From Trichodelitschia bisporula (Eukaryota), in NCBI GenBank assembly GCA_010356995.1, contig ML996701.1, positions 488,963-552,962 on the forward strand: a DNA stretch of 64,000 nt, read 5' to 3'. Made by a program: the position numbers and the translations under genes. The notes under the pieces were generated by a model, which saw only the letters and a list, made by a program, of their open reading frames with translations, was not told the origin of the DNA and did no database searches. Positions 43,241-49,100 of the stretch are shown piece by piece (positions within the stretch are counted from its first letter, which is position 1; each line of letters begins with the position of its first letter).

Positions 43241-44346
43241 AGAGGTGTGAAGCGTGGGATCTGGGCTTCAAAAGTGCGAAGAGTGTGACTAGACTAATTT
43301 CTTTTTGGTTTGACAGCTGCATACCCGTTTTTTTCTCTAAACGGACTGTTTGCGCTCTGGATTGCTATGTAGCAAACTGGATGATGGAATGCGAGACATT
43401 CAGCAATCTCTGTTCATGTCTCATCCCGCCAGCCTTGCCGGCGTTGCTCAAGCCTGTTGACCAATCACCACATGGCTTGGCAGACAGGAACCCCGCGTAA
43501 GACAGCAAACCACAAAGCTCGTGCATCATCGCTTTGTACTCCAGCGGCAAGAGGCAGTATCAACAAACCGTTCATACCACCAACCCTCCAATCCATTACC
43601 CGGCATCGACGTCGTCTCAATAGTTTCCACATCTGGCACTAGCGCGCGGCTCGGGCAGCATACGCTTGGCATCCAATTCCCCATTAGACATAGCGCGTAT
43701 CCCCCCACCATCGCAGAACTGGCCGCTGATCTGAAAAGACAACTAGGACGCCGAGCAAGCAGCTCGGTCCGCTTCGCAAAATCTATCGAGATTCAAGCAA
43801 TTTGGGATGGGATTTCCTTTGAGGTGTGCGCAACGTACGACGAGCGTGGGGGTGTGGAAACGGCAGAGATACGGCGACACCGGATATCCGTTCGAGGAAC
43901 GGCGTAGACGCCACTGCATCACGATCTCCGCTTCCATGAGGCGCGTTATGCGACAGGACGGAAAGGCCAAGTGGGTTGAGAATTGGGTAGCTGCAGAAAC
44001 TGGGGCCGGGCTCTCCATTTGGCGTAAAATGTTAAGGCTAAAATGCACAACTCATGTCGCTTAGCACGCTCGGTAGACGTCCCGACGTTCCCCGTCAACG
44101 CTTCGTGGAGCTGGGTTTGGAAGAGTCAACCGAACGGATAAGTGTCTTCTTGCAATGAACAGTGAGAATCACGACCAGTGGTACAATATCAAACGTCAGG
44201 ATGGGAATGCATGCATCGCTATCCTATTTTTAACTCCAGATGATGGTACTGTCACGTACCCCGTGGGATATATACCCTCATAAACATTCCCAGCGCCGGA
44301 GCTCTAACCCGAGAGCCGTTTCCTCAGCCGAGTCTAATGGAAGGTT

Positions 44347-46142
44347 TCAACCCTGTTCCTTTTTATCGCCAGCAGGACCTTCACCCGTGCGGCCCTGGGC
44401 CCGTTCACCACCGGCGACTTGAGCCTCCACGTCCATCTCCTTCTCCTCACCCACCCTGTTTTCCTCCGAACGTTCACTGCGGGCGAACTGAGCCTCAACA
44501 TCCATCTCTTTCTCCTCCCCACTCACGCTCGTATCAGCGTTCTGCGTCTCGAGGACGTACTCATCGTACTTCTTGCCCGCGCGCTTGGCTGCTTCGCGGA
44601 CATTGCGCGTGCGGTAGAGCCAGACCAGATGCGACGATACGATGCCGATTTCAAGGACGAGGCTGTGGACCGGTTAACGAACGCCCCATGTGTCATCGGT
44701 TTGGCATATGAAGAGGGGTCCAGTAGACAAGGGACTCACACGCAAATGTACGAGACACCTCCGATGACGTCAAAGCTGCGTTGTACCGCTGTGTTTGTCA
44801 GCCCCACCACGATCCCAAGAAAAAGAAGCACACGCACCCAACGCGAGCATCGAAAACAGAGCCCCGGACCAGTCAATGGCCAGAAACATGAAGTCTGTTC
44901 GTCTTAGTCCCGGAAGCAGCCAGTCCACTGGAATTGACGTACTAAGCCCAACGACGCGACCGCGCCGCTTCCATATCTCAAAGTACGGAGGAATGAGTCC
45001 GAGAACGAAGAGCACGACGGCGACGACGCCAATGAGCGTTATCGGCCACTCGACACCGCGAGAGTATGGACCCTGGGACGTCAGCTGGTCTAGACGGCGA
45101 CTGGGGTTGTAAAATCGGGGTACGGACCCGCAATGTCAGGACCAGCACGACTTCCAGCCCGCCGAACACCGTCATCGTGACGAGAGTAATGAGTGTGGCC
45201 TGCCATATCTTGAACTTACTGTTGGACGTAAGCAACCCGGTCCCAAGCCAACATTGTCCCAATGAGCGCTCACTTGTGGTACACCAGCGTTTGCGCCCAG
45301 CAGATGAGGCAAAGGAAGCAGAAAATCTGGGGCTGCGTTTGAATGGGTATGTTGAAATTCTGTCGCCAGTGTAAGCATTGTGGCCCCGCCTCTAGAGTGG
45401 GCTTACTTGGATGATGGAGTAGGCGCCAAATGGAGCCATGCCTAGCCCGTGTTAGGCCTTCTCCACACTTCGTGACAAGGAAGCTCCGTACACACGGCCC
45501 AAAGGAAGAGCATGAGGCCGGGAACGCCCTCAGTCGTTCCCCTACGCCAATTATGCCATATCCTGCGATAGGTTAGTGATCGAGATTCGCCATCTCAACC
45601 GCCGCGAGGTGTACGAACTGCGGTAGAATCTGCCGAGTATCAGTGCCAGTCCATAGTATGCTCGACAACTAGACCAAAAGATAACTCGGACTGCATACCT
45701 GGACACACCAGCAGCTGTCAAACGACAACAATGACCCGGATCAGCTTCCTTCTCGCTAAAGCCAAGCGTGGCAGTGGAAGATTGGGTCGCGAGCTTTACT
45801 CACACTATTCGTCAAGGTAAGTAGTCTGAAAGAGATTTACACGGCATATACGCAACAATGCGCCAAGACGCACACACCATGGGTTGTGGTGGTACAGCGC
45901 CGTGGGTAGCCTCGCAGCCGGGAAGGAAGGGGCCACTCAACTTGTTCCAATGGTCTGTGGGCGTCGCAAAAGGATTCAGCGCGTGCACTCAGCAGTAATT
46001 ATATCCCATGACCAAAAAGGAAGCCTTACACCTAGCACATTGGCAGCCTAGACACCGGGAGGATCAGCTTTCATGCAAAACGTGCGGCGGGACAAGTAGC
46101 GGGCCAGGTACCGACCGGAGGGATGTCGGTTTGGGGCGCCAT
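44347..46142 (-). CDS. PQ-loop repeat membrane transporter (many short exons)
   Basis: Spliced MAPQTDIPP|AANVLG|TIGT|I|CWCVQ|ILPQ|IWHNWRRGTTEGVPGLMLFLWAVC..NFNIPIQTQPQIF; second loop GLIPPYFEIWKRRGRVVG..FLAIDWSGALFS. Stop TGA at 44347-44349. GEEKEMDVEAQ occurs twice in the tail. Confidence 0.88.
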
Positions 46143-49100
46143 GGAGCTGGGGAAGCTTAAATCACGCAAAGAGCGAAACGGCGTAAGGCGGAAGTAAGGA
46201 CCTGACTCGAGGTGGTGTACTCATGTAGGGAAGAAGATGGTGGGTGGATGGCAAAATGAAGGTGGCGCGCTATATATACCGTTGTTTGCGCCTTCACTCC
46301 AAAGCGCTTTCACCCAGCAGTGCCTTCCAGTCAACGGCAAGGCTGACACCTCACCTGTCAAGCAACCGCGATTGACGGGATCCATGTCGAAAGTTAGGCC
46401 CATCTGCGCCGAACGCCTAGATAGCAAAAGGGAAGGCTCGAGCAGAGAAGATAGGAAAGAGGGTGGGGCATCTCCGCAGCAGCCGCGACCCCCCAGATTC
46501 AGCTGCCATGTGGCAAACAGCCAAAGGAAGGTTGGGCAGAGGCGTGCGAACGGAATAATCCCAGCTCACCAGTTGGAGGCCTATAGTCGCATCAGTCTGG
46601 CTTGCCTAGTAGAAGGGAGATACAAGAACCGCAAGCGGTGGCTAAAGGCGAACCGCAGTAGCCAACGAGAATAACGGCCTGAAGTCACAGATACTGAGTG
46701 GGGAAACAGGGCTTAAGCGTCCAGCCAGCCAGCCGCGGAACACAGAGCCTAGACGCGGTGCTTCCTGCGAGTAACCGAACGGGCATCGGGATGCATCCTG
46801 CCTCGCACCAAAATTACTAGTGCCGGGGAAGGGGGATTGGCGACATCAAAGCAGAGTGGCTTGCTGGAACCATCAACAATCGCAGCTTCTTTCAAACGAC
46901 AGTGGCTATAAACAAAGCCAATGGACGCCCGCCGGGATGAACCTGACATGATGTATCAGGTATCGCTCGGAGCACCTATTCGTCCCTTTCCAAGGTGGCG
47001 GAAATCGTGGGAATCGCGATGAACACGCTAGTGGAAAATCTGGCGGCTCCACATCCCCGCACCCAAATGCTCTAGCAACTCTAGGCAAAAACTGGTATGT
47101 TCAAGGCTACGCGCTGGTCCACATATCGAAAGTCCAGCCATCGGATGATCGGGCCTCGGGGAAGGCGGCAGCGCTACAGAACAGAGGCTAGCTGGAAGAA
47201 GCAGGCTACTGCTGACGCCGACAGAGGGATAATACGGTCAAGAGGAAGATTTCGCCCAGCCTGCCATTGGTTGGGGGTCGGGAACATCTGGGTGATTACC
47301 AGCACTTTGGGTTTGCTCCATATTCGACCCGGTTTAGGGCGGGGTCAAGCACTGATGGTGACGGGCGTTTGGCCAACTGGGAGGCACGCGAGCACATCTT
47401 CAGTTCGGAACTATCAGTAGTGGCAGCAACGGCGGCGGCGGCAGCGGTAACGATAACAAGTAGTAGGAATGGTGCTTATGAGGTAGGGATGGGATGGGAT
47501 GGGATGGAGGCCAGGTGCGGGGCTGTGTGTGATTGGCGAAGCTCGGGGTAATTCCCGCTGCCAGGAACAGGCCTGGGAGGTCTCATGGCCAACTGCAAGG
47601 GGATGGACCATCAGCCTCTACACAGCATTAGGAACAGAATGAGCTTGTACATACGACGACGATCACAGGAGACGGTGGTTGGACACCCGGCGTGTGAGAG
47701 GTGGCCGGTGTGAAAGGCCAAGTGATGGGACGTAACGAAGTGACGAGACCGGAGGCTCGACGACGCGGAAGCAAGGAGGGGTAAACGGATGTGATGGCGC
47801 TTCGTGCGGCTGGACCTGCTTCTTGCTGCTGCTGAATGGTGGGACGGCGGAAGAGACGTGGGAATAGTAGAGCAGGCTGGTTAGAGGAGCTACAGTACAT
47901 AGAACTAGTAGTTGGATAACACGGCTAAGAAGCTGGAGCCGTTTGATGCAGGAGGAGACTGCTCAGCCAACTGGAGTGGGGGGAAGTGGTGAAGAGGGTG
48001 GGACGGAAGGCTTCAAGTCGTCATACCGGCATAGGACTAAAGAGAGAGAAGGTGGGTTTGATGCTGAGATGAAAGATTGTCAGCTACAGTAGCTTGATGC
48101 TTCGGCTATGCAGCGAGAAAATGAGCCAGAGAGCTGCGGGTGGAGTGCAGCAGAGGTGCAGTTGCGGGATGCGTCCCGATCACGTGATGAGTAACATCCC
48201 CTCGCTCTTGACTCTTTTTTTGACGGCCTTTTCGCTTGTCCTCCCTCACTCTTTACTCCACTCCATTCCCCTCACATTGCAAACGTATCTGCGCTCTTGA
48301 TAATGTGCTCCAGCAGTGAGTATGTCCTTAACGTCATTCGAAGATGAAAGTATCGTCGATCTCCCCGTAACCGCAGCTCCAAACCACAAGACACCCTGCA
48401 AAATGCGCACGTCAACCCCATCATGCAGACATTCTCACCAAAGACAGCCGCAACATGCGAAGATCTTGCACAGGGCGTCGAAATGTGTAAACTAGCGCCA
48501 AACGACTGAACGGAAGCTGGGATCGAAATGTGCATCCCATAGGCCGCAGTGCAAGCCCGGGTTCCCAGGCCCAAGGTGATCGATAAACACTTACAACCCC
48601 AACTCCATGGCGCGGGACGCTTTCCATAATTACCGTGCGCCAATCGATGCGGGGTTCAATTCTTTAGTCACCGTTTTCTCTTCCCAGCCTCGCGCCACGC
48701 CGCCACGCTCGCCGGATAGATGCTCCGGGCTCCAACCACTACCTCCTTTCTCGTGCTGCGGAGAAGCAGCCATTGAGCCATCAAACGGTGTGATAATGCC
48801 GGAGACACGCGAGGGTGAGATGCACGAGCGGCACAGTAAGGCCGAGTGCAGCGTGGCAGGCCGGTTCAATCCATGCTTTTTATCTTCTGTCCAATTCTTC
48901 CATTCTGATGGGTTCATCAAACCCATAAGGTTAGCCGAACTTCAACCAACCAGCACGTCCGTCCCCTCCATCAGAGATCAGATTATCCTTCTCCTCACCA
49001 GAATGACTGAAATCATGGAAGACGATCATCGATTCATCAGACGGAGGTGCGTCAGGCCGCATATGTGGCGGGAATCAGCGCAATAGACAGGCCAAGCGCC

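Follow-up and report, generated by a model that had tools for sequence, protein, structure and literature searches.

Evidence for a conserved one-nucleotide exon in a PQ-loop membrane-protein gene of the fungus Trichodelitschia bisporula

At the ratchet sites of the Drosophila Ubx gene, recursive splicing takes place at exons of zero length, where the juxtaposed AG|GT leaves nothing in the messenger RNA (mRNA). Exons formed by one base have also been published. The gene APC11 of Arabidopsis thaliana contains the single-nucleotide exon A333 (Guo and Liu 2015, PMC4674806), and the CYP621A P450 genes of Fusarium have a one-nucleotide exon G, found within AGGGT, which its authors regard as the second case known so far and the first from fungi (Nelson and Syed 2026, PMC12940212). 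A related arrangement was described in the Pezizomycotina, namely the stwintrons, together with a shift of an intron by 1 nucleotide (nt), and their stepwise excision was shown (Fekete et al. 2017, PMC5587772). In this work we analysed a stretch of 64,000 nt from Trichodelitschia bisporula (GenBank assembly GCA_010356995.1, contig ML996701.1, positions 488,963 to 552,962), which is referred to as the window and whose first letter is position 1. Its minus strand carries a gene for a membrane protein with the PQ-loop domain (PF04193), and we hold with high confidence that the T at position 45804 is a real and constitutive exon of this gene, one nucleotide long. Given that one-base exons have been published for APC11 and CYP621A, the PQ-loop gene is a further case of a rare gene structure that was already described; this particular exon was not found in print, in literature searches that discriminate weakly.

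The coding sequence of the PQ-loop gene extends from position 46142 to 44347 of the minus strand, where all the features mentioned below are located, and was modelled with 14 exons. These are 27, 18, 13, 1, 16, 11, 71, 35, 86, 91, 130, 57 and 49 nt long, followed by the last exon, and are separated by short GT..AG introns of 47–137 nt; the G+C content of the DNA in the window is 0.51–0.64. When the T is included the reading frame opens for 306 amino acids, and without it the frame breaks. Exon 3 (45942..45954, 13 nt, ACCATTGGAACAA) encodes TIGT and ends with an A, the first base of an isoleucine codon, whereas exon 5 (45699..45714, 16 nt, CTGCTGGTGTGTCCAG) begins with a C, the third base of that codon, continues with CWCVQ and is followed by the donor GTATGC. 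Intron 3 (45805..45941, 137 nt, phase 1) has the donor GTTGAG at 45941-45936, a branch-like CTTAC at 45821-45817 and the acceptor TAG at 45807-45805; the A of the branch-like motif is at 45818, 13 nt before the AG, and the end of the intron is CTTAC-N11-TAG. Intron 4 (45715..45803, 89 nt, phase 2) has the consensus donor GTGAGT at 45803-45798, a branch-like CTGAT at 45744-45740 and the acceptor CAG at 45717-45715. Both introns are complete, a GT donor, a branch-like motif and an AG acceptor being present in each, and they interrupt the same codon, leaving the T between them in a TAG|T|GTGAGT that spans 45807-45798. Removal of both introns would ligate the lone T to exon 3 (...ACA A) and to exon 5 (C TGC...), so that it would become the middle base of the codon A|T|C, for isoleucine, and the mature junction would read ACAATCTGC. 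With the T, the protein reads ...TIGTICWCVQILPQIW, and the isoleucine is located in the conserved first helix (...GTIGT-I-CWCVQ...). A preliminary description of this DNA, made from the letters alone, had proposed this exon; its letters and coordinates were confirmed to the base, and it was right that exon 3 joined directly to exon 5 puts the reading out of frame, where it meets stop codons.

Compared with the ratchet sites of Ubx, the locus likewise shows a juxtaposed acceptor and donor within a long region that would be removed in two steps, with the difference that its AG|T|GT leaves one coding base. With CYP621A it shares a single base placed between complete introns, in the middle of a codon within a conserved motif, that reconciles a phase 1 with a phase 2 intron; in both cases the exon is conserved among orthologues, has support from public RNA data and was missed by annotation (PMC12940212). 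The two differ in the base, which is a G there, argued to be favoured, and a T in 13 of 13 cases of the PQ-loop gene; in distribution, since the CYP621A exon is from one genus and the PQ-loop exon spans Dothideomycete-like and Sordariomycete-like lineages; and in the gene family and its surroundings, given that the PQ-loop exon lies within a run of micro-exons of 18, 13, 1, 16 and 11 nt (PMC12940212). The exon of APC11 is also constitutive, needed for the frame and mis-annotated in public records; nevertheless, it belongs to a plant gene, its base is an A, and it was proven by reporter constructs and reverse transcription polymerase chain reaction, whereas the PQ-loop case relies on the lengths of RNA contigs and on comparative data (PMC4674806). 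As in the stwintrons, two spliceosomal introns adjoin, their positions within a conserved peptide differing by one base, with stepwise excision only inferred in the PQ-loop gene; in a stwintron, however, one of the splice signals of the external intron is interrupted by the internal intron and no exonic base separates the two, while the PQ-loop introns are complete and the base is kept (PMC5587772). A stwintron, in which the external intron can only function once the internal one has been excised from its donor, branch or acceptor, was in fact considered for this locus and rejected, because each of the two introns has its own intact signals and the RNA retains the single base that separates them.

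The RNA evidence comes from contigs assembled from two runs, X1 and X2, of one sample and one study, which were compared with positions 44250-46300 of the window. The run type is recorded as RNA only as a guess, and the runs were taken to come from spliced RNA because their contigs skip introns at GT..AG borders. Wherever they aligned, these contigs were 100% identical to the window, without a differing letter or an indel. Seven downstream introns are missing from them at the borders of the model (44662/44740, 44788/44838, 44894/44943, 45071/45127, 45218/45274, 45359/45407 and 45440/45491), which read CT..AC on the plus strand and thus GT..AG on the strand of the gene. An eighth joint connects 45562, the first base of exon 7, with 46115, and in both runs there are 58 letters between these positions. 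As both base 46115 and the first base of exon 2 are a G, the aligner put one letter of exon 2 into the block of exon 1, and the true spacing between exons 1 and 7 in the RNA is 59 nt (18+13+1+16+11). The recognisable micro-exons alone add up to 58 nt (18+13+16+11), and therefore the mRNA carries exactly one further base; it is in frame and, by the count of bases in the contigs, exactly one base longer than a direct join of exon 3 to exon 5. The preliminary description had expected RNA across this junction to contain the T: the length agreed with this expectation, and for the identity of the base the contigs offer the count only. It had also called the donor GTTGAG weak, which is fair given that position 5 is an A and not a G; the intron was nonetheless removed in the RNA contigs. 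A CTTAC located 10–12 nt before the AG is also present in two RNA-confirmed introns of the gene, those before exons 9 and 10. The introns at 45630-45974 are covered by no RNA contig.

The conserved peptides fix the frames of exons 2-3 and of exons 5-7, and for this reason the extra base must sit between ...ACA A and C TGC.... Within this 227-nt gap, all internal exons preceded by AG and followed by GT or GC that leave an intron of at least 35 nt on either side were taken as candidates. There are 28 of them, and the length is 1 mod 3 in 10 and equal to 1 in only one, T 45804, which is the sole AG-N-GT/GC site of the gap. The nine other 1 mod 3 candidates, of 4–58 nt, were rejected since the RNA contigs permit one extra base only; moreover, five of them hold stops. 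Two alternatives that the preliminary description had discarded also fail here, since the CAG acceptor at 45826 would create a 22-nt exon with an in-frame TGA, and an extension of exon 3 by read-through meets a TGA as well. The frequency expected by chance was estimated with 5000 dinucleotide shuffles of the 227-nt gap. A bare AGNGT appeared in 59% of the shuffles and is not unusual by chance, whereas AG-N-GTRNGT appeared in 3.0%, and the same motif with a YTNAY branch motif 4–25 nt upstream in 0.9%. The T is raised above chance by the RNA base count together with the conservation in orthologues. The high frequency of the bare motif would suit the idea that one base of exon 3 or exon 5 was lost from the assembly, in which case the gap would be an ordinary 227-nt intron and the AG-T-GT a coincidence; besides, exons 3 and 5 are too short to be aligned with the RNA contigs letter by letter. 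Nevertheless, the RNA contigs have no mismatch or indel in any aligned part, the composite of branch motif and AG-N-GTRNGT is found in less than a hundredth of the shuffles, and the orthologues share the 13-nt and 16-nt exons as well as the isolated T; such an assembly error is thus considered extremely unlikely.

The reading of T 45804 as an exon was then compared with related genes. Metagenome contigs scanned with alignment A1 yielded 80 loci, 48 of which contain the exon-7 anchor motif and are regarded as testable. These loci and the window were analysed with a spliced aligner of our own, which uses GT/GC..AG introns of 35–450 nt, BLOSUM62, a reference of 23 residues and an intron penalty of 8, and which returned 18/13/1/16/11 for the window. 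An AG|T|GT exon with both introns was recovered in 18 of the 48 testable loci, corresponding to 12 distinct sequences (L003, L006/7, L008, L010, L011, L038, L039/41, L046, L049, L055/56/57, L069 and L071/72/73); the preliminary description had pointed to a conserved AG-N-GT in related species as a way to check the exon, and this is what was found. In L005, which is cut by the contig end, the T and the downstream intron are visible. The split codon is always G|T|N or A|T|N, and in most of the 12 sequences the exons at its sides measure 13 and 16 nt, with exon 5 merged with later exons in L003 and L049. The upstream intron of these orthologues measures 47–57 nt and the downstream one 48–64 nt, and branch motifs of the CTAAC/CTGAC type precede both acceptors in 12 of 12, the one in the downstream intron of L069 being CTAAT. 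As a control, the alignment was repeated with 1-nt exons forbidden; the score fell by 8–32 in 13 of 13 cases (the window and the 12 loci), and the G-T-[IL]-G-T motif was destroyed in every one of them. In addition, homologous proteins align without gaps as ...ANVLGTIGT-[V/I]-xWCxQxxPQIW..., where the isoleucine of the window aligns with V/I, and the earlier suggestion that the reading fits the N-terminal motif of PQ-loop proteins holds. In every examined locus, the introns on either side of the T seem to be both present or both missing. The relative at L050:1191-1554 shares the N-terminal peptide and has in this part of the gene a single intron, after ...ILG, and none around the valine codon.

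The extra base could also have a source other than an exon. If the 227-nt gap were a single intron whose non-canonical borders, TT..AG or GT..CA, lay one base off, the mRNA would gain a G, and the codon would be AGC, for serine (TIGT-S-CWCVQ). Such a junction would likewise place 59 letters between exons 1 and 7, in contigs where the extra base is known by count, and the weakness of the GTTGAG donor speaks in its favour. It requires, however, a border that is not GT/AG in a gene in which 8 of 8 displayed joints are GT..AG, and it leaves unexplained why AG|T|GT with complete introns is conserved in 12 distinct loci. Furthermore, a panel of 120 public homologues, chosen with a Sordariomycete-like query and consisting of protein models only, includes 69 proteins with the intact motif, and none of these has serine at this position (46 have I, 21 have V, and R and T occur once each). 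The letter itself can be read in a pair of related loci. L002 has no introns in its PQ-loop gene and is 100% identical to every exon of the intron-bearing L055 and L057; in it, exon 3 and exon 5 are joined with the T between them, and both the T-less form and the form with a G are absent. Since moving one of the borders of L055 by one base would bring in a G, the T of L002 can only be the isolated T. The pair L002/L055 is direct evidence for the T at the level of letters, in a relative and not in the organism of the window. Taking all this into account, a non-canonical junction is regarded as very unlikely, and for T. bisporula we infer that the extra base of the mRNA is T 45804. Regarding the surroundings of this gene in the related locus, L002:489-4032 is colinear with L057 for approximately 3.5 kilobases further upstream, except for one gap of approximately 50 nt, and therefore one assembled RNA contig spans the gene and its upstream neighbour.

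Several observations weigh against the one-base exon or against its constitutive character. The contigs of T. bisporula report how many bases were added and not that the added one is a T, and a G introduced by a non-canonical junction would make an equally long mRNA; these contigs derive from a single sample whose runs bear the label RNA only as a guess, and they are blind to minor isoforms, which leaves the word constitutive unproven. The arrangement is not universal either, given that the codon is uninterrupted in 29 of the 48 testable loci, some of which are spliced transcripts and others genomes without these introns. Finally, the donor of the upstream intron is poor, and the 137 nt of this intron are over double its length in the orthologues. 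With respect to this last point, both the length and the unusually poor donor set intron 3 of the window apart from its counterparts in the 12 orthologous loci, and it seems that intron 3 expanded in the lineage of T. bisporula.

Fungal short introns are recognised as units, by intron definition, with the splice sites paired across the intron, and consequently no minimum exon size would be required. In the PQ-loop gene, the acceptor AG of intron 3 falls among the exon-side positions that belong to the donor of intron 4. Because these two sites are only one base apart, introns 3 and 4 are very probably removed sequentially, one after the other, and either order would give the same mRNA. The preliminary description had suggested that the downstream intron may go first; no splicing intermediate appeared among the assembled contigs, a kind of data that would not reveal one. 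It could be further imagined that the inclusion of the T is facultative, and that its skipping serves as an expression switch through a frameshifted and prematurely stopped mRNA, a possibility that would add to the constitutive exon and not replace it. In agreement with this, the join of exon 3 to exon 5 without the T causes a frameshift with a stop after approximately 106 codons, and non-productive processing does occur in this gene, since a minor contig retains intron 1. On the other hand, the T-less join was reported in none of the contigs, even if rare variants are lost from such assemblies; nothing links the inclusion of the T to any condition, and the coding need alone explains its conservation. 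We see facultative inclusion as rather unlikely. The minor contig (X1 record 2, 46030-46144, 115 nt) stops precisely where exon 2 ends and has a depth of 37.8 versus 93.2 for the spliced contig; retention of intron 1 brings an in-frame TGA, and the isoform would be non-productive. A broader proposal, which is speculative and unlikely, is that introns 3 and 4 form an ancient and obligatory two-step unit with a fixed intron order, since sites one base apart could not both be engaged at once; the T-less join would then lead to decay and the expression of the transporter would depend on the fidelity or the kinetics of splicing. Together with CYP621A, such a unit would hint that the Pezizomycotina harbour a hidden class of one-base exons.

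Regarding the lineages in which the exon is present, L003 is 95% identical to an Alternaria protein, and an exon of L071 is 79–88% identical to several proteins from Sordariales and Diaporthales (among others, Podospora, Lasiosphaeria, Cercophora and Cytospora). A quick tree was calculated with 73 rows, that is, 59 distinct pseudo-proteins built from tblastn pieces and 14 database proteins; 5 of the 80 loci were removed as too gappy, identical rows were merged, and the deep branches of this tree are unresolved. Ten one-base-exon loci cluster with Pleosporales proteins (with a support of 100 in the Shimodaira-Hasegawa-like approximate likelihood ratio test, SH-aLRT), the window joins this clade with a support of 90, and L069 and L071-73 form a separate clade. 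The one-base exon is therefore found in Pleosporales-like and in Sordariomycete-like lineages, and lichen-type and Tuber-like loci have no introns in this stretch. Judged from these sequences, the shared exon lengths of 18/13/1/16 argue for one origin before the lineages split, and the arrangement, with identical micro-exon lengths in Dothideomycete-like and Sordariomycete-like orthologues, is old.

The public model of the T. bisporula gene, EJ06DRAFT_480605 (P0001), is a partial protein of 278 amino acids, to which an exon of the gene is 100% identical; it starts with RIWHNWRRG at exon 7 and is devoid of all six N-terminal exons. The preliminary description had remarked that annotation usually misses exons of 1 nt. 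No full-length protein corresponding to the T. bisporula RNA contigs was present in the protein collection, where only this partial model is 100% identical. P0001 matches PF04193 in two stretches with 47.4 bits, against a cut-off of 22, and the full-length homologues P0021 and P0156 reach 78.4 and 72.7 bits, respectively. The absence of the N-terminus from the public model could be taken as a sign of a decaying pseudogene, with N-terminal exons that no longer join in frame; however, the spliced RNA has an in-frame length, the open reading frame of 306 amino acids is intact with the T, and the N-terminal peptide matches the homologues without gaps, so that this possibility, which the preliminary description had raised, is scarcely credible. 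In the panel of 120 proteins, 51 fail the motif pattern; at least 8 of these are residue variants, and approximately 43 are truncated or garbled. Several models continue past GTIGT into an apparent intron (GTIGTGE..., GTIGTGS...), and others are annotated as partial and start at ...PQIW. On the basis of these protein models, the garbled N-termini look like the product of gene finders that force the frame around a missed one-base exon. P0035, P0075, P0119, P0052, P0103, P0154, P0155 and P0172 have G, R or T in place of V/I, or an apparent intron right after GTIGT.

The PQ-loop gene adds a deeply conserved fungal example, with a T and not a G, to the very few documented one-base exons, and it supports the view that the splicing of short fungal introns imposes no lower limit on exon size. 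In practical terms, the conserved first helix is recovered when exons of 1 nt are permitted in spliced alignment, and fungal gene finders and RNA-seq aligners should accept AG-N-GT exons. Likewise, intron loss and the origin of neighbouring intron positions can be studied with the shared 18/13/1/16 layout as a clean marker.

The remaining parts of the gene are as follows. Exon 1 (46116..46142, 27 nt) encodes MAPQTDIPP, starts with the ATG at 46142-46140 and ends with CCG at 46116, followed by the donor GTCGGT; intron 1 (46048..46115, 68 nt) has a branch-like CTGAT and is absent from the main RNA contigs. Exon 2 (46030..46047, 18 nt) encodes AANVLG and has the donor GTAAGG, an 18-nt exon being also present in the orthologues, and it is followed by intron 2 (45955..46029, 75 nt). 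Exon 6 (45619..45629, 11 nt) encodes ILPQ and has the donor GTTCGT, and exon 7 (45492..45562, 71 nt, IWHNWRRGTTEGVPG...) is the first exon of the public partial model and corresponds to the RNA contig block 45491-45562. Exons 8 to 14 with their introns occupy 44347..45441, with the stop codon TGA at 44349-44347. Upstream of the gene, a TATA-like tatatata is located approximately 130 nt before the ATG, and the RNA contigs extend past 46300, X2 record 4 by approximately 640 nt and X1 record 3 by approximately 1735 nt, which represents either a long 5' leader or an overlapping transcript of the neighbour. At the opposite end, the C-terminal tail encoded by the last exon (approximately 44400-44530, minus strand) contains GEEKEMDVEAQ twice, approximately 30 codons apart, in a region that is acidic and poorly conserved.

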